Source of the DNA: PVC group bacterium
GTDB lineage: Bacteria; Omnitrophota; Gorgyraeia; B26-G9
Direction of reading: 5' to 3'
Length of the DNA: 64,000 nucleotides
Assembly: GCA_024231215.1 (NCBI GenBank)
Contig: JAAEQR010000072.1
Span: 129,210-193,209 of the forward strand
Shown here: positions 10,725 through 54,454 of the stretch, piece after piece
How the letters are laid out: every line of letters starts with the position of its first letter
How positions within the stretch are numbered: position 1 is the stretch's first letter
Made by a program: the position numbers and the translations under genes
Notes under the pieces: model-generated
What the model was told of the DNA's origin: nothing
The model's database searches: none
Seen by the model: only the letters and a program-made list of their open reading frames with translations

Positions 10725-12505
10725 AGCAGATCATCGGGGGGTTGATTATTGTTAGCATCTTATGTGCAACGGTTAGTTTGTTTGCGGAAGAGTTAGCGCA
10801 AGCTATATTGCCGCCACAGGCTACGACGGCACAGGTTGCTTTTTTACAAGAAGGTATATACGGTAGAATTTCTTTAGATCTGCGCCAGATTGATATCCAT
10901 GATGCATTGAAATACTTTTCATTAAAAAGTGGGTTGAATATTGTTACGTCAAAATCTGTAAGCGGAAGGGTCACTTTGATAGTGGAAGATGTTCCGGTTA
11001 AAGATGTATTTGACATAATGTTGAGATCTACGGGCTTGGCGTATGACAAAGTTGGCAGTATCTACAATGTAATGACTCAAGAAGAATATAAGATTCTTTA
11101 TGGTAAACGCTTTGCCGATATTCGTAAGGTTAAGGTTTTTCGTTTACAATATGCGGTTCCGGAACAGGCTTTTAGTTTGCTGGATACGATCAAAAGTGAA
11201 GTTGGACGTATCTTGGTTGATCCTGAGTCTGGTACTGTATTGTGTATGGATTCTCCGGAAAAAATAGAACAGATGCAGTCGGCACTGGATCAGTTTGAAC
11301 GAAAGGGAGTAACCCGGGTTTTTGATTTAAATTATGCGTTAGCTTCAGACATAGAAGAACATCTTAAAAGCAGGCTTGATGATAAAAAAGTAGGTTCAAT
11401 AAAAGCTGATGTAAGAGCAAACCAGGTTGTAGTTCATGCTTTGCCTAAAAGGATAGAAGAAATAGCAGAGCTGATAGAAATTTTGGATAAAAAAACAAAA
11501 GAAGTTTTGATTGAGGCCAAAATTTTAAAAATAAAATTGGGAAATAATTCAGAAGCCGGCGTAGAATGGGAAGGTATATTTAATGCTTCGGAAAATAATG
11601 GGTTGACTTATGTGGGGTCGTATCCTTTTAGCGCGGTGCAGGCGACGACTGATGAATGGAGATCAAGAAGTCAAGTTTGGAAGGATACAGGATATGTGGG
11701 GTCATATCCTTTTAGCGGAACAAGTTCTAACTATTCCGGAGGACGCTCATCTATTGGATTTGACAAAATGCATGTTGGGGTTGTAGGTTCCCATGATTTT
11801 GATTTTTTATTGAAATATTTGACAATTGAGAATGAAGCTAAGATTCTGTCTAATCCGAAAATTGCTGTGGTTAATAAGCAAGAAGCCAGGATTCATGTCG
11901 GAGAAAAACAGGCATATGTTACCACAACCACCACTAGCGGACAATCAACAAGTACTATTTCAGAAAACGTTACATTTATAGATATCGGGATTCAGCTTAA
12001 TGTGACTCCGACGATAAATGAAGATGATTTTGTGCGGTTACAGCTTAAGACAGAAGTAAGTAGTGTGGTGGATGTCTTACTTACTCCTACGGAGAATAAA
12101 ATCCCGATTGTGGACACATCGCTGGCTGAGACTGTAGTTTTAATCAAAGGAGGCAAAACAATTATTATTGCGGGGCTGCGGAAAGATGAAAAGTCAAAGA
12201 TAGTACGCCGAGTGCCGATCTTTAGTAAGATTCCGCTTTTAGGAAAACTATTTCAAACAAAAATAGATATTGTAAATCGCACAGAATTACTGATTATGGT
12301 CACTCCGCAGATTATTACCGGGGATGCTTTAGAAATGATGGATAGTAAGCCGATTGGAGCTCCGGATGTAAAAGATATTAAGGAGTATGGAGAACTGGAA
12401 AAAAGAAGAAAAGAATTAGAAACATATCAGCCGGTTGTAGAGGAATTAGGGGGTATGAAATTTAAAAATTTTAAAGTGTATGAAAAGATGCGGAATAAGG
12501 ATTAA
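10721..12505 (+). CDS. secretin (GspD/PilQ family) 1
   Basis: Signal peptide, ISLDLRQIDI N0, N-domain repeats, VLIEAKI, LSNPKI...NKQEARIHVG, VPIFSKIPLLGKLF, ELLIMVTP. Confidence 0.93.
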   Translation: MKQIIGGLIIVSILCATVSLFAEELAQAILPPQATTAQVAFLQEGIYGRISLDLRQIDIHDALKYFSLKSGLNIVTSKSVSGRVTLIVEDVPVKDVFDIMLRSTGLAYDKVGSIYNVMTQEEYKILYGKRFADIRKVKVFRLQYAVPEQAFSLLDTIKSEVGRILVDPESGTVLCMDSPEKIEQMQSALDQFERKGVTRVFDLNYALASDIEEHLKSRLDDKKVGSIKADVRANQVVVHALPKRIEEIAELIEILDKKTKEVLIEAKILKIKLGNNSEAGVEWEGIFNASENNGLTYVGSYPFSAVQATTDEWRSRSQVWKDTGYVGSYPFSGTSSNYSGGRSSIGFDKMHVGVVGSHDFDFLLKYLTIENEAKILSNPKIAVVNKQEARIHVGEKQAYVTTTTTSGQSTSTISENVTFIDIGIQLNVTPTINEDDFVRLQLKTEVSSVVDVLLTPTENKIPIVDTSLAETVVLIKGGKTIIIAGLRKDEKSKIVRRVPIFSKIPLLGKLFQTKIDIVNRTELLIMVTPQIITGDALEMMDSKPIGAPDVKDIKEYGELEKRRKELETYQPVVEELGGMKFKNFKVYEKMRNKD

Positions 12506-12509
12506 AAAT

Positions 12510-14894
12510 ATGAAAAGGAAAAGTATGCTTTATCAGAAAAAAATATGGGGAATAAGAATAGCGTGTGTAATTGTCATGTTTATTCTGGGGGGAAGTATTG
12601 CTGTCCAATCTGCGCCGGATTCTTATGTTACAAGTATTGTGGAAAAAATTGAACAGGATATGAATGCTTTGTCTAAAGAGTTGGAATTAAATAAGCAGGC
12701 TTACGAAAAATTGAAATCTGAACATGCGCAGAAACAACAGACATTGGTCGTTCGGGATAGAGAGATTGAAGTTTTGCATAAGAAAATTACGCAATCAAAG
12801 AAAGAGTTTTCAGAGAAACAACAGGCATTGGTCGTTCGGGATAGAGAGATTGAAGTTTTGCATAAGAAAATTACGCAATCAAAGAAAGAGTTTTCAGAGA
12901 AACAATATAAATTGAACCGGAAAGATGATGAAATTGCGAAGATTAAACAAGAGGCGAGTAGTTTAAAAAAAGAGGCACTGCAAAAAAACAAGATGGTGGC
13001 AAGCAAAGATGAAGAAATTACGGATTTGCAGGAACAGCTTAAAGATTTTGATGTTCTTCTGAAAAGTGCGCATGAAACTATAAATAAGTTGAGACATGAT
13101 GATTCTAATAAAGATATAGCTATAGAATCAGTTCGCGAAGAATTGCAAAAAACAGAAGATTCATTTTTGGATAAGATTCAGTCAGAGAGGGATTCTTTTG
13201 ATGAAAGGCTGGCTAAAGCTAATGAAGTAGCTGAAAAACTCAGGAATCAAAATAAAAAACAAGCACTTGAATATATACAGCAAATTCAGGAGAAAGAGGG
13301 ACAGATAAAAGTTTCTCAGAAAACTATTAATCAGAAGAATGAGATAGTAACAGGACTGAATAGTGAGCTGGATAAAGAAAGGTTGGCAAATGAAAATTTG
13401 CGTAGTCAGTATAATATCTCAGGAGACGAGAAGAAACAACTGTTGGCAACAATACATGAGTTGGAAACAGAGATAAGCAAGCAGTCTTTAAAGCTAAAAG
13501 CAAATCAGCAAAACCTGAGCAATGCAAATAAAGACCAGAGCACACTGAAACAGGATTATGATAAACTTCAAGAGGAACATGAAAAGATTCGTAATGAAAA
13601 GGAATTGTATTTAAGTAAAGTCTATTATTATGAAAAACAGCTAGAAGAAAAAGATAAGAAACTACAGGCATTACGTGACGATATACAGAGACAGGTGTCT
13701 TTATTGCATCATCAGCTGGGTGGGGTAGTTCAGGTTTCCCAGGAGACTGATTCTCAGGGGCAGCAGCTTAAGGATAAAAAAGCTGAGCTTGAACAGGTTA
13801 AATTGCAAACAAGACAGGCTGAACGTGATTTTCAGGAACAATTAGGAAAGATGAGCAAGGAAAATAAAAAATTGCTGGAACAGAGTAATAAGCTAGTTGA
13901 AGAAAAATTACAGATTCTAGCACATATGTTGCAGCTGGAAGAAGAGCAGACAATAGAAAGTGAGGCAGGGATTGCTCCGGATATAGAGCATGAGCTAGTG
14001 TATATAAAGAATGAGTTAATAAATCTAAGTGCGTCTTTAGATCAGAAAGGGCTTGAATTAACTAAACTACAAGAGGAAAATTATAAATTATTTAAAGAAA
14101 AAAATGAGCTGCGTAATATTCTTCATGAATATAATGAACAGCTGTTGGCCAAAGATAAAAAGTTTAAGCATGCACAGCAGATAATGAAACAGAAAGAAAA
14201 GTCTCAGGGTTCAAGATCTAAGGAAATTAAAAGAGATCTTGATGTCCAGATGCGGAAATTCAGAAAGGTCAATGCTGATTTTGAGAAAAAAAATGTTTTA
14301 TATGAAAAAGATATGAAGAAATATTTATCTCAGCTGAATGATTTAAGGGATAAATTAGCTATTTCTAGAGATCAATATGAGAGTGCGAAAAAGGATCGTG
14401 ATTCTTATGCTAAGCGTTTGAAGGATATTTACGCGGATGAGAGAGATTGGCAGAAAAAAGATGCACAACAATTAACGCTGTTAAGCAGTTATTCCAAAAA
14501 CATAGATGAATTGAATGCAAAGATACATACTCTTAATACGGATAATAAACGACTTAGTTTACTGCTTAAGACTATGCCGGAAAAATTGCAGACATTGGAA
14601 AATGACGTTGGTAATCTACGTAAGCAGAATGCCACATTGCATTATAATTTAGGTGTATTTCATACCCAGCGACAGGAATATACACAGTCTATAGCTGAGT
14701 TTAGTCAGGCTTTGAAGTTTAACTCTAGTGATGCTAGCACACATTATAATCTGGGTGTTATATATTCTCAATATTTAATTGATGAATCAAAGGCAGTAGT
14801 ACATTTTAAACATTACCTTGTTTTGGCTCCAAATGATAAGGATATACAAAGGGCAAAAGAGTATATTCTGCTTTGGGGGAATAGAGGTAGGTAA
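12510..14894 (+). CDS. exported long coiled-coil protein with C-terminal TPR
   Basis: Signal/TM segment, about 680 aa K/E/Q-rich heptads, two HYNLGV TPR motifs. Confidence 0.8.
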   Translation: MKRKSMLYQKKIWGIRIACVIVMFILGGSIAVQSAPDSYVTSIVEKIEQDMNALSKELELNKQAYEKLKSEHAQKQQTLVVRDREIEVLHKKITQSKKEFSEKQQALVVRDREIEVLHKKITQSKKEFSEKQYKLNRKDDEIAKIKQEASSLKKEALQKNKMVASKDEEITDLQEQLKDFDVLLKSAHETINKLRHDDSNKDIAIESVREELQKTEDSFLDKIQSERDSFDERLAKANEVAEKLRNQNKKQALEYIQQIQEKEGQIKVSQKTINQKNEIVTGLNSELDKERLANENLRSQYNISGDEKKQLLATIHELETEISKQSLKLKANQQNLSNANKDQSTLKQDYDKLQEEHEKIRNEKELYLSKVYYYEKQLEEKDKKLQALRDDIQRQVSLLHHQLGGVVQVSQETDSQGQQLKDKKAELEQVKLQTRQAERDFQEQLGKMSKENKKLLEQSNKLVEEKLQILAHMLQLEEEQTIESEAGIAPDIEHELVYIKNELINLSASLDQKGLELTKLQEENYKLFKEKNELRNILHEYNEQLLAKDKKFKHAQQIMKQKEKSQGSRSKEIKRDLDVQMRKFRKVNADFEKKNVLYEKDMKKYLSQLNDLRDKLAISRDQYESAKKDRDSYAKRLKDIYADERDWQKKDAQQLTLLSSYSKNIDELNAKIHTLNTDNKRLSLLLKTMPEKLQTLENDVGNLRKQNATLHYNLGVFHTQRQEYTQSIAEFSQALKFNSSDASTHYNLGVIYSQYLIDESKAVVHFKHYLVLAPNDKDIQRAKEYILLWGNRGR
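12731..12905 (+). repeat. 84-bp (28 aa) tandem duplication inside coiled coil
   Basis: Units start at 12731 and 12815 and differ by one base; partial third start at 12899. Confidence 0.95.
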
Positions 14895-21357: not shown

Positions 21358-22514
21358 CATTTTTTAGAAAATATCTAACCCACATTATTATGAGTGCGGT
21401 TATTTTTTTATCCATAATGAATCTCTCTTACGCGCAAGCAGAAATAAAACAAAAAGCCGATGAACATTATAAGAAGGGATTATTGCTGTACCATGATGGG
21501 GAATACGAAAAGGCGCAGGCAGAATTCTTGAAAGCAAAGAAGTTGATCGACAAGGTAAAAAAACAGAAGGTTGATCCTAAGAAGACAATGGCTGTTGTCA
21601 ATGAACACTATCAAAAAGGATTGACTGAACATTATAAGAAGGGATTATTGCTGTACCATGATGGGGAATACGAAAAGGCGCAGGCAGAATTCTTGAAAGC
21701 AAAGAAGTTGATCGCTGAGGTAAAAAAACAGAAGGCTGATCCTGAGAAAACAAAGGCTGTTGCCAATGAACACTATCAAAAAGGATTGACTTTATATTAC
21801 CAAGGTGAATATGAAAAAGCTAAAGAAGAATTTTTAAAGGCAAAAGTCTTAGCTGGGGCAAGTGTGCATAAAGAACAAACAGTTATTAGTAAAGAAGTAA
21901 AGCCGGAGAAAAAGAAAAAATCTTTTGAATATATTATTGGCGAAGGCGATGTCTTGGCTGTTTCGGTATGGGAAAATGACGACCTTGATGCTGAAGTTAT
22001 GGTTCGTCCAGATGGGAAAGTTTCTTTTGCTTTAGTAGGAGATGTTCTGGCTGTTGGTTTTACTATTGAGCAATTTCGTCAGGACTTGACAGCGCTTTTA
22101 AAAGAATATATACGTTATCCTCAGGTGTCTGTTTCTATTAAGGTAGTCGGAGGAGAAAAAGTAATTGTCTTAGGCCATGTAAGAAGTCCGGGTGTGTATG
22201 AAATAACCGGAAGGAAAACTATTTTAGAAGCTATTGGGAAAGCAGGAGGTTTTACGCGTGATGCAGTGCTTAAGAGTATTATCGTTGTCAAGGGAGGCCT
22301 TGAGACTCCGGTGCCTAAAAAGCTTAATCTAACCAGAGCTTTGAAAAAAGGAGAGGTTATTGAGAATATTGTCTTAGAATCAGAAGATATTATATATGTA
22401 CCCAGCCGGGTTATTGCCGATGTCAGCTACTTTATGCGTACTATTCTTTCCCCAATAACACAAAGTGTTTCTACAACACAGGATATTAACGATATCCGTG
22501 ACTGGAACAACTAA
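21354..22514 (+). CDS. TPR + polysaccharide export (Wza-like Poly_export/SLBB) protein
   Basis: YIIGEGDVLAVSVW, VRPDGKVS, GHVRSPGVY, LESEDIIYVP; N-terminal HY.KGL TPR repeats. Confidence 0.88.
   Translation: MTFFRKYLTHIIMSAVIFLSIMNLSYAQAEIKQKADEHYKKGLLLYHDGEYEKAQAEFLKAKKLIDKVKKQKVDPKKTMAVVNEHYQKGLTEHYKKGLLLYHDGEYEKAQAEFLKAKKLIAEVKKQKADPEKTKAVANEHYQKGLTLYYQGEYEKAKEEFLKAKVLAGASVHKEQTVISKEVKPEKKKKSFEYIIGEGDVLAVSVWENDDLDAEVMVRPDGKVSFALVGDVLAVGFTIEQFRQDLTALLKEYIRYPQVSVSIKVVGGEKVIVLGHVRSPGVYEITGRKTILEAIGKAGGFTRDAVLKSIIVVKGGLETPVPKKLNLTRALKKGEVIENIVLESEDIIYVPSRVIADVSYFMRTILSPITQSVSTTQDINDIRDWNN
21461..21790 (+). repeat. 165-bp (55 aa) tandem duplication in TPR region
   Basis: Units at 21461 and 21626, near-identical (TGAACATTATAAGAAGGGATTATTGCTG...). 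Confidence 0.93.
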
Positions 22515-46886: not shown

Positions 46887-47447
46887 ATGAGTGCAAAAGA
46901 GATACTTACTAAGTCAGAAGATAAGATGGGGAAATCTGTTGAAGTATCAACCAGGGAGTTTAGTACTATAAGAACCGGCAGGGCAAGTGCGGCGTTGGTA
47001 GAAGGTATTCGAGTGGATTATTATGGAACTCCGACTCCTTTAAAACAGCTAGCTGGTGTTTCTACTCCGGAAGCGCGTTTGATTGTAATTCAGCCATGGG
47101 ATCCATCTTGTATTGGCGATATTGAGAAAGCTATTTTAAAGTCAGAATTGGGTATTACTCCATCTAATGATGGGAAAGTAATTCGTTTAAGTGTACCGCC
47201 CTTGACTAAAGAACGCAGAGCGGAGCTGGTTAAGGTTGTTCATAAGCTAACTGAGGAAGGCCGTATTTCGATACGTGGTGTTAGACGAGAGGCAAATGAA
47301 CAGATAAAGCAGGAAGAAAAAAAGAGTAGTATTACCGAAGACGAAAGTTTTAAAGCTCAGGAAGATGTCCAAAAGCTTACGGATAAATATATAAAGCAGT
47401 TAGAAGATTTTTCAAAGAAAAAAGAATCTGAAATAATGGAAGTTTAA
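46887..47447 (+). CDS. frr: ribosome recycling factor
   Basis: IRTGRAS, YYGTPTPL, PPLTKERR. Confidence 0.97.
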   Translation: MSAKEILTKSEDKMGKSVEVSTREFSTIRTGRASAALVEGIRVDYYGTPTPLKQLAGVSTPEARLIVIQPWDPSCIGDIEKAILKSELGITPSNDGKVIRLSVPPLTKERRAELVKVVHKLTEEGRISIRGVRREANEQIKQEEKKSSITEDESFKAQEDVQKLTDKYIKQLEDFSKKKESEIMEV

Positions 47448-47453
47448 ATGTGT

Positions 47454-47529
47454 GGGCCGCTAGCTCAGTTGGCAGAGCATCGCCCTTTTAAGGCGGGTGT
47501 CGAAGGTTCGAGCCCTTCGCGGCTCACCA
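47454..47529 (+). tRNA. tRNA-Lys(TTT)
   Basis: Cloverleaf, anticodon loop CTTTTAA, encoded CCA. Confidence 0.96.
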
Positions 47530-47683
47530 TATTAATACTTCCAAGGGTTCGAATCGAAGTTGAACGCCGAGCAAGTGCGAGGAAAAGCGAGCAGGACTGT
47601 GAGCGGCAGTGAAACGAGGCGGGCCTGCGCAGCTCTCAACAGGAAGTTGTGAGCGTAGTAGGCGAGCCCTTCGCGGCTCACCA
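47530..47683 (+). repeat. tRNA-linked element copy A, ending in a 21-bp duplicate of the tRNA-Lys 3' end
   Basis: CGAGCCCTTCGCGGCTCACCA at 47509-47529 and 47663-47683; core closely similar to 54193-54309. Confidence 0.9.
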
Positions 47684-47696
47684 TACATTCTGTTGC

Positions 47697-47774
47697 GTCC
47701 CCATCGTCTAGCCAGGTCTAGGACAGTAGATTTTCGATCTACCGACAGGGGTTCAAATCCCCTTGGGGACGCCA
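47697..47774 (+). tRNA. tRNA-Glu(TTC)
   Basis: GTCCCCA/TGGGGAC acceptor, loop TTTTCGA, GTTCAAATC, CCA. Confidence 0.95.
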
Positions 47775-47812
47775 AAAAATTAAGGTCACTCGAAAGAGTG
47801 GCCTAATTTTTT
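47775..47812 (+). terminator. intrinsic terminator after tRNA-Glu
   Basis: GGTCACTC-GAAA-GAGTGGCC hairpin flanked by A/T runs. Confidence 0.8.
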
Positions 47813-47819
47813 GTTCGGA

Positions 47820-48063
47820 CACAAGGGGATGGTCAAAAGGGTCTACGGGGAAAAGACTGTTTTTCCCGTTCGGCGTACTGGAGCCCAAAACGGAAAGAAA
47901 AGGAACAGCGACCGAAGGGAGCGATAGGGAAAAACCATAAGGGTTTTTCTCTATGGAGTGATCTCGCCAAAGGCGGGAGAACGACTCCCCTGGGGACGTT
48001 GATTGCTTATTGCGAAATCACGACGTTCAAATCCCCTTGCGACACGACCCCCTGGGGACGTCA
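47820..48063 (+). repeat. GC-rich region with three partial copies of the tRNA-Glu 3' end
   Basis: TCCCCTGGGGACG at 47986, GTTCAAATCCCCTTG at 48025, CCCCTGGGGACGTCA near 48049. Confidence 0.75.
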
Positions 48064-48143
48064 AAATTACATGTGATGCTTTTAAGTTTCATCTTAACCA
48101 TTGACTTTTACGACGACTAATCATAAAATAAACTTAAATTATG

Positions 48144-48287
48144 TTAAACCCGAACTATGCATTAGGCTGCGGCGAATAGCATTAATCTTTGCCATACCAC
48201 AGAGGGGATGCCTGTATTTTTTGTAAGTATTTTATCTCAAAAATCTTAGCACTCTTCATCCGCCTTCTAATACATAATCCGGGTTAA
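48144..48287. repeat. long imperfect inverted repeat (about 42-bp arms)
   Basis: AACCCGAACTATGCATTAG.../...CTAATACATAATCCGGGTT. Confidence 0.7.
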
Positions 48288-48301
48288 TAAAGAGGTAAGT
48301 T

Positions 48302-49258
48302 ATGGGTATTATGGACGAAAGTTATATAATGGATCAAATCCCCGTAAATATTACGCTTGCTTTAGGCGGGGGTGGTGTTCGCGGTCTTGCTCATATCGGA
48401 GTAATTAGAGCATTAGAAAAGATTACTCCAATTAATATGATTTCCGGGACAAGTATGGGCGCAATTGTTGGAGCGATGTATGCACTTAATCCGGACATTG
48501 AGAGGGTCGAAGAATTATTGATGACGCTTCTTGATAAAAAAGAGGTTAAGGAGATTGAACGATTGATTAGCGGGCATACTCCGGTAGAAGAGAAAAAACT
48601 AATTGTCCAGGGACTGCTTACCTTTGTAAAAAAGATGTATTTACTTAATTTGCGGGCGATAAAGAGATGGGTATTTAGTGGTAAAGAAATAACATCAATG
48701 TTTGGAGACCTGGGGCTGGATACTGATTTTAAACATGCTAAGATACCGATTTCCTGTGTAAGTGTGGATTTGCGTACCGGAGATGAAATAGTATTGAGTA
48801 AGGGGGCGATTATGGAGGCAGTACTAGCCTCGGTATCTTTACCCGGAGTTTTTCCTCCGGTGAAAAAAGGAAAACGTCTTTTAGTTGATGGTGGAATAAT
48901 CAGCAGTGTACCGGTAGATGCAGCAAGGAAGTTGGGAGGAGATATAGTTATTGCCATTGGGGTGGAAGCACAGGTTGATTATAATAAGAAGCTGGGGAAT
49001 GGATTTGATATAATGTTTCAGGCAGATGCGATAAGAGCTCGCAAATTAGCTGAAATAAAATTAGCTCAAGCGGATCTCGCTATCTGTCCCAAGGTGGGGG
49101 CGATTGGCTGGGCTAGTTTTTCGCGGGCAACTGAATGTATCGAGGCTGGGGAAAAAGCAGTTGAAAAAGCAAAGCCGAAAATCCTAGAGTTAATTAAGAA
49201 AAAGAGACGGGAAAAGTTTTGGAAAGGATTTTTCTCTTTTCCTAATTATAAAGAGTAG
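48302..49258 (+). CDS. patatin-like phospholipase
   Basis: GGGGVRGLAHIG, GTSMG, DGG. Confidence 0.93.
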   Translation: MGIMDESYIMDQIPVNITLALGGGGVRGLAHIGVIRALEKITPINMISGTSMGAIVGAMYALNPDIERVEELLMTLLDKKEVKEIERLISGHTPVEEKKLIVQGLLTFVKKMYLLNLRAIKRWVFSGKEITSMFGDLGLDTDFKHAKIPISCVSVDLRTGDEIVLSKGAIMEAVLASVSLPGVFPPVKKGKRLLVDGGIISSVPVDAARKLGGDIVIAIGVEAQVDYNKKLGNGFDIMFQADAIRARKLAEIKLAQADLAICPKVGAIGWASFSRATECIEAGEKAVEKAKPKILELIKKKRREKFWKGFFSFPNYKE

Positions 49259-49282
49259 TTTTGATTGCTGAGGGAGGAAATA

Positions 49283-50953
49283 ATGATTAAAAAAATATTA
49301 CTAAGTATTTTAATACTGTGGATTATAGTTATTATTAGCGGATTTATCTATTTAAATAAAGTGTACATTCCTCAAAAACTTAAACCTCTTGTAATCGAAA
49401 ATGTGGAAAAAGCTTTAGATAAAAAGATGACGATTGACCATGCCCAGTATTATCCGATGAAAGGTGTTTCTTTTTCGGGAATTAATATAGTTAATCAGGA
49501 TGATTCCCAGTTTATAGCTGTTAAATCAGCTTCACTTAAACTTAGATCATTTCCGAAAATCAGTAAAGATAAAGTGGTTGTAAATGCAAAACTTATTGTT
49601 GATCAGGCCTATGTGCAGCAAGATCAGATTTTAGTTGAAGTTGAAGGGATGGCACTGGATATTAATGCTAATGTAAAGGGTAAAGAGGATGTTAGTTTAA
49701 AAGGAAATCTATCTTTAAAGGGCATTAATTTAAAAGGCCTGCCGGCAATTCAAGATATAATGACTTTAAAAGGAACTATAGATTTTACGCAAGATTCATT
49801 TAACTCTAATGACTTATCATTACAGATAAACAAGGAACCAATGACACTTGCTGTTAATGGTACTTTTAGTCCGGAAGATTTAAATATAGCAAAATTTTCA
49901 GCTGTTTACGGAAAGACAAATTTAGATTGTTCGGCTAAAGTTTTTGAGTTAAAAAATCCGCAGCTTGATGCGACAATATCCGGAGCGATTGATTTAGAAA
50001 GCATAGGTAAAATATTAAAAGATATAACTTTGCCGATAATGTCTGGAGTATGTAACTTTACGTTTAAAGCAGATGGAAGTGCGGGGGATTTAAGTGCCTT
50101 AAAGGCAAAAGGAAATATTAATTTTCCACAGGGTGAGATAGAGAAAATAAAGTTCTCCCAGCTTACGGCTGATATATTGCTGGAAAAAGGAATAGTTTAC
50201 TGTAATCCATTTAAATGTGTTTTTTATGAAGGCAGGATTGATGGTAATGCTGAGGCCGGGATTATTGATGTTCTTTTGCCGATAAAATGTGCAATAGATA
50301 TAGATGGAATTAATATCGAACCATTGATTACAGATGTAGCTGGTTACGATGTAGGTGGAGGAAAGCTTGCTGCGCATGCAGCTATATCTGGAAGTGCAAC
50401 AGATTTAAATTCTTTAGATGGCACCGGGTGGTTTAAACTTACTGAGGCAAAAGTGCAAATACCCTCAAAATTTGAGAAGCTAGCAACGATGTTTCAATTA
50501 AATCAACTCTCAAGTATGTTGATCAATGAAGCTTCGGCCAGTTTTACTATTGCAGAAGGAAAAATTGATACCCAGGATTTACAGATCCTGGCTGATTTAG
50601 CAACATTTACAGCCAAAGGATATGCCACATTTACACAGTATATAGATTTTATCATTGAAATAAGTGTTGCAGAAAGTTTTAAAGATAGTTTTGCTGGAAA
50701 TATAACTTCATTCATTCGTAAAGTTCAAGTTCATGGACAGGGGCCGAACGGTATAAAATATAAACCGCTGATTGAAGAATCTGTTAAAGCAGCAGTTGTC
50801 GAGCAGGTAAAGGAAAAAGGGCTAGATGCTTTAAAAGGTCTGTTGGGCGGCGGAGACAATAGCGGTGGGGCAGAAGGATCCGAACAGCCACAGGGTGATG
50901 GAGATATTAAGGATCAAATAAAAAAAGGTTTAGAAGGTTTGTTTGGTAGGTAG
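49283..50953 (+). CDS. AsmA-like/DUF748 family protein
   Basis: N-terminal TM, repeated beta strands, FYEG...G and AsmA-like C-terminus. Confidence 0.75.
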   Translation: MIKKILLSILILWIIVIISGFIYLNKVYIPQKLKPLVIENVEKALDKKMTIDHAQYYPMKGVSFSGINIVNQDDSQFIAVKSASLKLRSFPKISKDKVVVNAKLIVDQAYVQQDQILVEVEGMALDINANVKGKEDVSLKGNLSLKGINLKGLPAIQDIMTLKGTIDFTQDSFNSNDLSLQINKEPMTLAVNGTFSPEDLNIAKFSAVYGKTNLDCSAKVFELKNPQLDATISGAIDLESIGKILKDITLPIMSGVCNFTFKADGSAGDLSALKAKGNINFPQGEIEKIKFSQLTADILLEKGIVYCNPFKCVFYEGRIDGNAEAGIIDVLLPIKCAIDIDGINIEPLITDVAGYDVGGGKLAAHAAISGSATDLNSLDGTGWFKLTEAKVQIPSKFEKLATMFQLNQLSSMLINEASASFTIAEGKIDTQDLQILADLATFTAKGYATFTQYIDFIIEISVAESFKDSFAGNITSFIRKVQVHGQGPNGIKYKPLIEESVKAAVVEQVKEKGLDALKGLLGGGDNSGGAEGSEQPQGDGDIKDQIKKGLEGLFGR

Positions 50954-50956
50954 AGA

Positions 50957-52060
50957 ATGATTGCTAAAGATGAAAGAAGCCTTTTAATTTATAATACGCG
51001 CTTAATTGAGGGCGACAGGATTAAAAAAAAATCCTGGATTTTATTAAAAAACGGTAAAATAAAACAATACGGCGACGGGAAGAAGAAAGCACCTAAAGCC
51101 GTAAAATCTATAAATGCCCGCAATTGTTATCTTGCTCCCGGTTTTATTGATTTGCATATTCACGGAGAAATAGATACGATTTCCCGAAATCAGATTAAAT
51201 ATGGAACCACCGCATTTTTACATGCCTTGTATGCAAATAGACCTGCTAAGCTTTGCGAATTAATTAAGTTAAACAAACAAATAAAATTATCGGGTGCAAA
51301 ATGTTTAGGTTTTAATATCGAAGGGCCTTTTTTAAACCGACAGATGGCTGGAGCACAACCCAAAGCTGGGATTATTAAGCCGGATATTAGACAGTTAAGT
51401 AAGTTATTAAAATATGCAGGTAAAAATATAAAAATAATGACACTTGCCTGCGAATTAAACGGTAGTGATAAAGTTATAGGAATATTGAAAAAAAACAGGG
51501 TTATTCCGGCTTTAGGACATACGAAGGCTGATTTCGAACAGGCAATTGAGGCGATGAATGCTGGAGCAAATTACGGAACCCATGTGTTTAATCGCATGGG
51601 TGATTTATCGTCGAAGGATCCGGACATAATAACGGCAATGCTCATAAATGATTTAGTAACAATCGAAGTGATTGCTGACGGTAAACATGTACACCCCATG
51701 CTATTAAAGCTTTTAGTTAACAATAAACCGCAGGAACGTATTGTACTAGTAACAGATTCTGTGGCAGGGATGAAGACAATCAAAATGAAGAAAGAGGGAG
51801 GCGTATATACCCTGCTAGACGGTACAATTGCCGGAAGCAATCTTAATATGGCACAAGCAGTTAGAAATATGGTAAAATATTGCAATGTCAGTATCCCTGT
51901 GGCAGTAGGCATGGCTAGTACTAATCCAGCCAAGGTTTTAGGGATATGTAACCGTAAAGGTACTATAGCGGTAGGCAAGGATGCTGACTTAGTTATTTTT
52001 GATAATAAATTTAAGATAAAGTTTACGTTAATAAGCGGAAAAATCAAGTATAAGAATTAA
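50957..52060 (+). CDS. nagA: N-acetylglucosamine-6-phosphate deacetylase
   Basis: PGFIDLHIHG, EGPF, GHT, THVFN, DGKHVHP, VTD, IAGS. Confidence 0.92.
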   Translation: MIAKDERSLLIYNTRLIEGDRIKKKSWILLKNGKIKQYGDGKKKAPKAVKSINARNCYLAPGFIDLHIHGEIDTISRNQIKYGTTAFLHALYANRPAKLCELIKLNKQIKLSGAKCLGFNIEGPFLNRQMAGAQPKAGIIKPDIRQLSKLLKYAGKNIKIMTLACELNGSDKVIGILKKNRVIPALGHTKADFEQAIEAMNAGANYGTHVFNRMGDLSSKDPDIITAMLINDLVTIEVIADGKHVHPMLLKLLVNNKPQERIVLVTDSVAGMKTIKMKKEGGVYTLLDGTIAGSNLNMAQAVRNMVKYCNVSIPVAVGMASTNPAKVLGICNRKGTIAVGKDADLVIFDNKFKIKFTLISGKIKYKN

Positions 52061-52077
52061 ACAATAGAGGTGAGAGT

Positions 52078-54048
52078 ATGTGTGGAATAGTTGGATATAT
52101 TGGAAAAAAGAATGCAGTGCCGATTTTAATGGATGGTTTAAGCAGCCTTGAATATCGAGGATATGATTCAGCTGGCATAGCTGCAATGGATAAAGGCCAG
52201 CTTTGCATGTCAAAACGAGCAGGTAAGTTAAAGATTTTAGCCGAATGCCTTAAGAAAAATCCGGTAAAAGGAGCGATTGGGATAGGTCATACGCGCTGGG
52301 CTACGCATGGTGAGCCCAACGAAATAAATTCACATCCCCACTATAGCTGTAAGAGTGATTTTGTAATCGTGCACAACGGGATTATTGAAAACCATCATGA
52401 ACTAAGAGAAAAGCTAAAAAAAGAAGGGCATAAATTTCGTTCTCAAACAGATACTGAAGTTGTTGTCCATTTGATTGAAAAGCTTTATAAAGGTAATTTG
52501 CTCAAAGCAGTTTGTGCGGCAATTCGGCAGCTGCACGGTAGCTTTGCTTTGGGAGTAATCAGTACGCATCACCCGGATATGCTGGTTGCTGCACGTAAAG
52601 ATAGTCCGCTTATTGTGGGCGTAGGTAAAGGAGAGAATTATATAGCTTCTGATGTGCCGGCAATATTGAAATATACAAGAGAAGTTATTTATCTTGATAA
52701 TAACGAAGTTGCGGTTTTAACACGTGACAAGGTTGCTTTATATAACACTAAAGAAGCGCCGATAAAGAAAAAAACGGCAAAGATTAAATGGGATTCAGCT
52801 AGTGCTGAAAAAGCCGGATATCCTCATTTCATGATCAAGGAAATCAACGAACAGCCGCAAGTATTAAAAACCATCTTAAATCACAGGATAAAAGGTAATC
52901 GTGTAGTTTTCGAGAAATTCAATATCTCAGAAGCAAAATTAAAAAAAATTAATAATATTCAGATTGTTGCTTGTGGCACAGCTTATCACGCGGGCTTATG
53001 CGGTAAATATATTTTAGAAAAATTGCTTAGGTTACCTATTAATGTGGATACATCAAGTGAATTTCGTTATCGTGATCAGATTATCACAAAAGGCAGGACA
53101 TTGATTATTGTGGTAAGCCAGTCAGGAGAAACAGCAGATACCTTAGCTAGTTTAAGAGAAGCGAAGAAAAAAGGCGCAGTAGTTGCTTCTATTTGCAATG
53201 TTGTAGGTAGTTCTATTGCTCGGGAATCAGATGGAGTGATTTATACCTTAGCTGGTCCGGAGATCGCCGTGGCGTCGACTAAAGCCTATACAGCTCAGTT
53301 AACTACATTTTATCTTCTAGGTATTTATCTAGGGCGTATTTATGGTACAGTTAGTGATAAAGCAACAAAGAAATTGTTGGGGGAACTGGCCAAAGTTCCT
53401 GGACTGATGACCCAGAGTCTTAAAGAACATAAAAAAGTCAAAAAAGTTGCTGATCAGTATATTAGAAGGTATGACTATAGATTAGCTGAGCAGTTAATGT
53501 TTTTAGGGGATGAAATTTGGCGGTTTAAAGATCCTAAAAAAGCGCTTGCATTTGCTCAACAATGTGCTAAAAAATCACATTCTGCTTATGGTAAGCGGTT
53601 CGGAGATTTTCCTTTCTTGTACCTTGGACGGAACGTTAACTATCCTAGTGCCTTAGAAGGAGCCTTAAAACTTAAAGAAATAACCTATATTAGTGCAGAA
53701 GGCTATGCTGCCGGAGAGATGAAGCATGGACCGATTGCACTTATCGACGAATTTCCACTGGTTGTATGTATTACTCCTCAGTCTGCAGTTTATGAAAAGA
53801 TGCTTTCGAACATTAAAGAGATTCGGGCGAGAAAAGGTGTAGTTTTATCTGTAGCCACAGAAGGGGATAAGGAAATCAGGAAAAAAGAATACTCTGATTA
53901 TGTTATAGAGATTCCAAAAATTGATGAATTCTTCTCCCCGTTGCTAGTAGCATTACCGTTACAGTTATTGTCCTATTATATTGCGGTGGGTTTAAAATGT
54001 GACGTAGACCAGCCGCGAAATCTAGCTAAGAGCGTTACTGTAGAATAG
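52078..54048 (+). CDS. glmS: glutamine-fructose-6-phosphate transaminase
   Basis: MCGIVG, LEYRGYDSAG, GHTRWATHG, SQSGETADT, PRNLAKSVTVE. Confidence 0.98.
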   Translation: MCGIVGYIGKKNAVPILMDGLSSLEYRGYDSAGIAAMDKGQLCMSKRAGKLKILAECLKKNPVKGAIGIGHTRWATHGEPNEINSHPHYSCKSDFVIVHNGIIENHHELREKLKKEGHKFRSQTDTEVVVHLIEKLYKGNLLKAVCAAIRQLHGSFALGVISTHHPDMLVAARKDSPLIVGVGKGENYIASDVPAILKYTREVIYLDNNEVAVLTRDKVALYNTKEAPIKKKTAKIKWDSASAEKAGYPHFMIKEINEQPQVLKTILNHRIKGNRVVFEKFNISEAKLKKINNIQIVACGTAYHAGLCGKYILEKLLRLPINVDTSSEFRYRDQIITKGRTLIIVVSQSGETADTLASLREAKKKGAVVASICNVVGSSIARESDGVIYTLAGPEIAVASTKAYTAQLTTFYLLGIYLGRIYGTVSDKATKKLLGELAKVPGLMTQSLKEHKKVKKVADQYIRRYDYRLAEQLMFLGDEIWRFKDPKKALAFAQQCAKKSHSAYGKRFGDFPFLYLGRNVNYPSALEGALKLKEITYISAEGYAAGEMKHGPIALIDEFPLVVCITPQSAVYEKMLSNIKEIRARKGVVLSVATEGDKEIRKKEYSDYVIEIPKIDEFFSPLLVALPLQLLSYYIAVGLKCDVDQPRNLAKSVTVE

Positions 54049-54097
54049 GGGTTGACAAACAAAAAGAAATATTGTAAACTTTAAACTCTAACTACAA

Positions 54098-54174
54098 GGG
54101 CGCGTGGCACAGTTGGTTAGAGCACCTCCCTTACAAGGAGGGGGTCGTAGGTTCGAGTCCTACCGCGCCCACCA
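54098..54174 (+). tRNA. tRNA-Val(TAC)
   Basis: Cloverleaf, loop CTTACAA, CCA; TTGACA-17-TAAACT promoter upstream. Confidence 0.96.
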
Positions 54175-54326
54175 TGAGTTTACCTGACGGACTCGAATCG
54201 AGTTGAGCGCCGAGCAGGTGCGAGGAAAAGCGAGCAGGACTGTGAGCGAAAGCGAAACGAGGCGGGCCTGCGCAGCGAACAACAGGAAGTTGTGAGTGTA
54301 GTAGGCGAGTCCTACCGCGCCCACCA
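54175..54326 (+). repeat. tRNA-linked element copy B, ending in a 21-bp duplicate of the tRNA-Val 3' end
   Basis: CGAGTCCTACCGCGCCCACCA at 54154-54174 and 54306-54326; core shared with copy A. Confidence 0.9.
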
Positions 54327-54376: not shown

Positions 54377-54454
54377 GGAGCCGTAGTTCAGCTGGTTTAG
54401 AACGTCGGACTGTCGATCCGAAGGTCGCGGGTTCGAACCCCGTCGGCTCCGCCA
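54377..54454 (+). tRNA. tRNA-Asp(GTC)
   Basis: Cloverleaf, loop CTGTCGA, CCA. Confidence 0.96.

Follow-up and report, generated by a model that had tools for sequence, protein, structure and literature searches.

How can one short, non-coding sequence stand behind two different transfer RNA (tRNA) genes and carry, at each of them, ends that match that particular gene? The question is raised by a 64,000-nucleotide stretch of DNA (the window) from an Omnitrophota genome (PVC group bacterium, assembly GCA_024231215.1, contig JAAEQR010000072.1, positions 129,210 to 193,209), in which the original prediction, made from the letters alone, had placed a common core of about 115 bp behind tRNA-Lys and tRNA-Val, each gene in a two-tRNA cluster, and behind each core a 21-bp copy of the tRNA 3' end up to CCA, at repeat periods of 154 and 152 bp. 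The tRNA-linked copies with tailored ends are real: the cores are 91.2% identical over 114 nt (E ~1e-39), ARAGORN finds the pairs Lys + Glu and Val + Asp, and the duplicates, which start at 47663 and 54306, are exact. The reading developed here, to which a probability of roughly 0.55 is assigned, is that each copy is a non-autonomous, guide-bearing mobile cassette of the same kind as the tRNA-linked repeats (TLRs) of E. coli.

In window coordinates, and on the + strand like all window features below, the first copy lies behind tRNA-Lys(UUU/ttt) (47454..47529), in which the junction base, C56, is at 47509. The gene is followed by an AT-rich spacer (47530..47542), the loop of the predicted left-end hairpin; by a guide (47543..47553) that is the reverse complement of tRNA-Lys 54-64 with a single G-T wobble at 59; by a structured core (47552..47662) with tandem GA mismatches in its hairpins (118 bits with the covariance model); and by the duplicate of tRNA-Lys 56-76 (47663..47683, by sequence identity), on whose first base a right-end hairpin (47623-47663) closes. 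Next comes tRNA-Glu(UUC) (47697..47774). The second copy repeats this order behind tRNA-Val(UAC/tac) (54098..54174, C56 at 54154), with a spacer (54175..54188), a guide that is the exact reverse complement of tRNA-Val 54-62 (54189..54197), a core (54196..54305; 121 bits) and a duplicate of tRNA-Val 56-76 (54306..54326, again by identity), ahead of tRNA-Asp(GUC) (54377..54454). Both duplicates start at T-loop C56, and identity runs 2 (Lys) and 1 (Val) bases past the 21 nt. The complementarity that had been claimed for the flanks is exact at Val, where GGACTCG (54189) is the reverse complement of CGAGTCC, and inexact at Lys, where AAGGGTTCG (47543) pairs with CGAGCCCTT through one G-T wobble.

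The genome to which the window belongs (G000) has exactly four copies by BLAST and by covariance model, at Lys(ttt), Val(tac), Leu(caa) and Gly(gcc), and all four lie directly behind tRNA genes. In Rfam the window has no family at gathering score except tRNA and tmRNA, and nothing meaningful at E<=10 over 47400-47800. A resemblance (CTGTGAG...GAAAC) to the hammerhead ribozyme, whose conserved core is CUGANGA...GAAA, was rejected, as it is not conserved in the family alignment and has no Rfam match. It is very improbable that the copies are assembly artefacts or scars left by integrative elements of the ordinary kind that target tRNAs. The independent genome G003 has an orthologous Val(tac) copy with a core 96% alike, and other orthologous copies recur in independent assemblies; one core stands at 35 anticodon types. 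Duplication of a tRNA 3' end is indeed the usual mark of an integrase island, and the genome has two such islands (at Ser, 29 kb; at Asn, 7.6 kb), but their duplications extend into the T-loop and have neither guide nor core. The genome's 12 integrase-family matches fall outside the range of the window on contig C72, the open reading frames (ORFs) of the window not being themselves part of that scan. The Asn insert, on contig C211, was also considered as an autonomous copy and rejected, since it holds cargo only and has an ordinary att site with one mismatch; this island (L055, G000:C211:18800-26450) carries ORFs without an integrase, by eye a Fur-like regulator, NifX-like proteins, P-loop ATPases and Fe-S proteins.

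Beyond this genome, BLAST finds the core in 10 of 41 related genomes, and a pattern scan of one genome per species gives 22 loci, 21 of them titled Omnitrophota. A covariance model (R1) built from 62 copies has matches in 33 of 151 Omnitrophota genomes, with at most 15 copies per genome. This count is preferred for the spread of the family over that of a looser pattern, which matches 43 of 401 class genomes, some by chance (14 matches in 12 genomes in the control, hand count). A metagenome scan adds 62 loci, a small number of them chance matches; three viral scans gave 0 matches each and hence no phage copy, and the reads of four sequencing runs covered essentially only tRNAs, from other organisms. 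Among 63 matches held out from the model, 42 have an ARAGORN tRNA within 260 nt, and on inspection most of the others adjoin tRNA remnants, tandem copies or contig ends. The set of units extracted for analysis has 115 distinct complete members (72 from 27 genomes and 43 from metagenome loci) behind 35 tRNA anticodon types and tmRNA, as collected by a detector that demanded identity of positions 56-65 and a non-TT context and that consequently dropped decayed copies.

These units have a fixed left junction and a variable right boundary. In a search without constraint on the left side, 26 of 27 short duplications showed no identity left of C56 into TT. On the right, the duplicate equals the 3' end of the upstream gene over 21 nt in 82 of the 115 units (the first 10 being identical by the detection rule); 33 duplicates end exactly at CCA and the others continue beyond it by as much as 50 nt. 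Tandem arrangements are frequent, as are truncated ends. The cores are also often broken by other palindromic, REP-like inserts (L007, L008, L138, L340, L344, L347, L354).

The guide is the reverse complement of positions 54-65 of the host tRNA itself and reaches 14-15 nt of complementarity in single copies. Over the 115 copies, Watson-Crick pairing of the guide occupies 222 of 230 cells at positions 59-60 (shuffle mean 130) and 223 of 345 at 63-65 (shuffle mean 116), values reached by 0 of 2000 shuffles at either place. The excess persists when 62 copies are shuffled within genomes (119/124 and 117/186 observed; again 0/2000 shuffles reach either) and in 41 held-out copies that were not used in building the covariance model (80/82 against 52 shuffled at 59-60; 75/123 against 44 at 63-65).

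With which of the two copies of the tRNA end does the guide pair? The original prediction had named the duplicate, and this part of it needs correction, since the first copy is preferred. The dinucleotide AA follows the guide in 115/115 copies, opposite T54-T55, which the duplicate lacks. Its variant TTGAA accompanies A57 in 26 of 27 cases, and the variant GAGAA is found only with G57-A58 (7/7), where it would form tandem G-A pairs, which are stable. At two loci of one genome (L339 and L341, both G480) the 5' part of a tRNA, ending in GGTT, is followed by a non-tRNA arm that the guide still matches, and constrained RNAfold runs favour guide with first copy over guide with duplicate by 4.6 and 5.5 kcal/mol. 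On the basis of the AA opposite T54-T55, the GAGAA/G57-A58 association, these arms and the constrained folds, the partner is taken to be the intact first copy, with the pairing crossing the insertion point. At loci with drifted duplicates it is the tRNA that the guide matches (L311, L314, L320, L324, L325). The layout of L339:235-530 and L341:440-800 (tRNA 1-55, non-tRNA hairpin, core, then an intact tRNA downstream) is a 5'-duplicating one. As for the wobble of the Lys copy, gene and duplicate in G000 both have G at 59; a remnant at the same site in G003 has a homologous spacer, and the tRNA there has A at 59, which matches the guide. It is likely that the duplicate has kept pace with the gene and that the guide has fallen behind.

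The core itself shows strong structural covariation. RNAalifold gives three internal hairpins, with two-sided change at 18 of 28 pairs; a separate count gives 17 of 29, reached for the counted pairs by 0 of 500 shuffles and by no slid control, with helix 4 one column off (48% paired), and in the correct register helix 4 has 3 two-sided changes at two pairs. The right hairpin, closing on the first base of the duplicate, has at least 5 compensatory forms, among them the stems GCCTAC/GTAGGC, GGTTAC/GTAACC, GGCTAC/GTAGCC and GCATAC/GTATGC; in one subtype G replaces C56, and the stem matches. Changes that keep a wobble pair are favoured on the tRNA-sense strand (A>G 22/248 and C>T 13/84, against G>A 15/489 and T>C 5/75), at two to three times the rate per site of other transitions, and therefore this strand is the one that folds. 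The bias does not separate RNA from single-stranded DNA.

Such covariation on the transcribed strand, together with the wobble bias, would also be expected of a structured RNA that the host maintains and releases by tRNA processing (like E. coli RtT or RrA/B/F), its T-arm pairing tuning the folding or processing of the precursor and its copies being spread from one tRNA locus to another by recombination and conversion. In agreement with this, the Lys precursor in its minimum-energy fold has the duplicate in the acceptor stem, and according to passages of PMC8144298 Hfq and CsrA bind in vitro to three E. coli TLRs that are transcribed and processed. The family is nevertheless patchy, with 118 of 151 genomes without a match and sets of tRNAs that differ by genus, and many copies are decayed or interrupted. 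The hairpin is kept beside a non-functional 5' tRNA fragment at L339 and L341. Copies with a terminator-like hairpin before the guide (20 of 115 under a strict rule) have guides that pair no worse than those of the other copies (means of 8.8 of 10, n=20, and 8.7, n=95). Taken together, these points make a maintained host RNA improbable, slightly more so than the retro-element considered below.

Evidence that the units move comes from comparison between loci. In genomes with two or more copies, the nearest core is at a different tRNA for 45 of 53 copies, 19 of these within one genome (with cores up to 97% alike), and at the same tRNA in another genome for 8; judged by their sequences, the cores follow the host lineage and not the tRNA. 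A core tree with few columns, and with good support for 12 of its 61 branches, places the Lys copies of G000 and G010 in separate supported clades. Orthologous sites show both gain and loss: the Lys-Glu locus, in 16 of 18 genomes of the bacterial family, is filled in 2, holds a remnant in 1 and has no copy in 13, with spacers down to 3 nt. The CCA end is informative in the same respect (30 loci per genome, out of 41 tRNA matches in G075 and 46 in G038). Units stand behind 6 of 11 CCA-less genes of G075 against 4 of 21 genes that encode CCA, and for 4 of the 6 CCA-less genes the duplicate has CCA; element-free genes encode it in 16 of 20 cases (G075) and 16 of 22 (G038). This pattern implies that the downstream copy keeps the original continuation and that the upstream end was shortened at a variable point. 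The proposal of a non-autonomous element entering at the T-loop is supported by the fixed junction, the empty orthologous sites, the lineage-following cores and the absence of coding capacity, and is corrected as regards the pairing partner and the architecture, which has a precedent in the E. coli TLRs.

On this reading the unit would comprise a tRNA tail (56 to ~76), a trailer, the guide and the 110-nt folded core, and would be inserted between T55 and C56, restoring the gene and displacing its original 3' end downstream. The tRNA-sense strand would fold, first copy and guide forming the left hairpin and the right hairpin closing on 56, and an enzyme acting in trans would cut at T55|C56, the likeliest candidate being a recombinase or transposase of single-stranded DNA that recognises hairpins. 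The unit would then move, plausibly as a circle, with the guide selecting a matching T-arm. At each new tRNA, tail and guide may be refitted by copying from a template, through slippage, conversion from the gene or quasi-palindrome correction, and not through a sequence preference of the enzyme.

Could the moving form be RNA? In a retro-element, a CCA-ended RNA would be the template of a reverse transcriptase (RT) that takes its primer from a nick opposite T55|C56; the duplicate would be a target-site duplication, and template switching would write the guide at each insertion. The junction would then be fixed at the 3' end of the element and the boundary variable at its 5' end, with which the layout agrees, as do long perfect inverse copies of 14-20 nt (L083, L146; 20 nt at the genome's own tRNA-Gln(ctg)) and the presence of tmRNA among the targets. 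G000 has 10 RT-domain matches, the most among the 151 genomes, on small contigs (C21, C192, C254, C264, C205 and others). Over the element-bearing genomes, however, RT domains occur in 9 of 33 against 7.4 expected (hand count), and none was found in the three richest, incomplete genomes (15, 15 and 12 copies). Pairing shows no excess at 69-72 (99/458 against 96 shuffled), and DNA geometry accounts better for genes that lack CCA but whose duplicates have it. This route is accordingly considered unlikely.

Candidate enzymes for the cassette were sought in several ways, and none was found. None of the GIY-YIG (4), RT (10) and integrase (12) matches of G000 is flanked by an intact unit, model R1 giving the 4 short copies only, and they were rejected as partners. 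A Y1 transposase domain is present in 18 of 18 genomes of the bacterial family and is therefore uninformative; the Y1 gene beside a truncated left end in G006 (L232:1835-2590) has terminal inverted repeats of its own and belongs to a separate element. As a side observation, at L163:2440-3190 a PD-(D/E)XK endonuclease gene lies within a tRNA-Arg gene, apparently in an anticodon-loop intron.

Several observations weigh against the mobile cassette. The 75 ORFs downstream of units are mostly housekeeping and include no autonomous partner; one GIY-YIG, one PD-(D/E)XK and one topoisomerase IB gene are among them, none inside a unit. Separate searches with left and right ends in five copy-rich genomes found no long gene-bearing unit in six stretches, the unpaired ends being truncations. 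The copies are kin and not independent trials, so that the shuffle counts overstate significance, and the guide anchor was picked for best pairing in the counts over 115 copies. At 66-68 the excess is weak (110/345 against 83) and is not repeated in the held-out copies (33/123 against 33) or within genomes. The two loci with non-tRNA arms come from a single genome. Neither an excised circle nor an empty allele of the same species was seen, and gene conversion among old copies could make the cores of one genome alike. At Val(tac) and Gly(gcc), orthologous copies have been kept across genera, which, with the conserved and partly expressed E. coli TLRs, fits a function for the host.

A second TLR-like subtype is also present in the window, where tRNA-Glu is followed by a terminator-like hairpin and then by a decayed unit (47775..48062) with an anti-T-stem stretch (47822-47830) and degenerate copies of the tRNA-Glu 3' end (47982-47999, 48025-48039 and 48045-48062); this unit is better preserved in G008 and G017. 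Units or remnants of the subtype stand elsewhere in the genome at Met(cat), Glu(ctc), Gln(ctg), Ser(gga), Ala(ggc), Gly(tcc), Arg(acg) and Cys(gca). Behind tRNA-Gln(ctg) at G000:C195:247062-247400 come a terminator and then a 20-nt perfect reverse complement of the 3' end of that gene. In this genome the duplicate of the second subtype begins at 58/59, as in the E. coli TLRs. Apart from these units, the window has tandem repeats of 165 and 84 nt (21461-21790, 12730-12897 and 11609-11733), probably inside coding sequence.

The family adds three things: a junction-spanning guide that tracks its host gene, signs that retargeting has taken place repeatedly, and the finding that E. coli K-12 has the same guide. 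Should an enzyme use the guide, its insertion chemistry would be new, programmable by base pairing and directed to safe sites; otherwise, the cassettes still mislead tools that read any tRNA 3'-end duplication as a genomic island.

Among known systems, the IS200/IS605 elements (Y1 HUH) and REP/RAYT have imperfect hairpin ends on one strand and pick their target by pairing with an internal guide, which is fixed and 4-5 nt long. The family shares the one-strand hairpin ends and, on the reading proposed here, the guide-based choice of target; it differs in having no linked transposase, and IS200/IS605 elements have no 21-nt duplication. Tyrosine-integrase elements at the tRNA T-loop, in whose att pairs the identity includes the 7-bp overlap of that loop, replace the tRNA 3' end, and the CTX phage att site and integron attC sites recombine as folded single strands. 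The family differs from them in that it has no common sequence left of C56 (the 26 of 27 cases above) and neither integrase nor gene in the unit, and in that one core serves many tRNAs. In group I introns, P1 and P10 resemble the guide, which pairs across the upstream junction and can pair with the downstream copy; the family's core, in contrast, is 110 nt long and ends in G, C or T instead of an invariant G, and the family has A opposite T55, no U-G pair at the junction and no Rfam match. Assignment to REP, REPIN or MITE sequences, which are scattered outside genes or have terminal inverted repeats and a short target duplication, was rejected: 4/4 copies of the genome are at tRNAs, the duplication measures 19-50 nt and there is no fixed terminal repeat.

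The closest likeness is to the E. coli TLRs (the 178-bp repeats of tyrT-tyrV, rttR/RtT RNA), which are also non-coding, directly behind tRNA genes, often tandem, and end in a copy of the 3' end of the upstream gene. Known since 1978, they are described in passages of PMC8144298 (2021) as 22 copies at ten loci, with 18-19 bp of 3'-end identity to the tRNA or 5S gene before them, and as having no known function or origin; word searches of that article meet no mention of TLR mobility or of an internal complement. A word search of a review of small bacterial repeats (PMC3184786) indicates that TLRs are not treated there, and in the open-licence literature neither a covarying guide nor movement of TLRs was found described. 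The preprint 10.1101/2024.07.17.603846 reports higher mobilome coverage of tyrT-rttR during stress and discusses it as RNA, which is suggestive only. In E. coli K-12, the Tyr, Ser, Pro and Arg TLRs and two long Lys TLRs contain 7-10 nt of reverse complement to their own T-arm. Only 5 nt are seen in the short Lys units and in two of the three Arg units, and the 5S-linked TLR rrB has, by eye, at most a weak guide match of 4-6 bp. GAGAA follows the guide in the E. coli Tyr, Pro and Ser units, the variant carried by 7 of 115 Omnitrophota copies.

The two groups differ in the duplicate (21 nt from C56 in Omnitrophota, 18-19 nt from 58/59 in E. coli) and in the core, for which homology is undetected (model R1 on 7 loci, best 15 bits, E 0.08; no Rfam RtT match). 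The family works like a TLR but, since boundary and core differ, is not filed in the E. coli family. Unlike the E. coli TLRs, it offers evidence of gain, loss and retargeting, and it shows what TLRs may be: guide-bearing mobile cassettes. As a tentative generalisation, which we rate as doubtful, TLRs across bacteria, those of E. coli included, could be non-autonomous members of an undescribed self-retargeting, base-pair-programmed integration system, in which a guide of 9-12 nt, rewritten from the target at each move, would aim a folded single strand at the T-arm of any tRNA or tmRNA.

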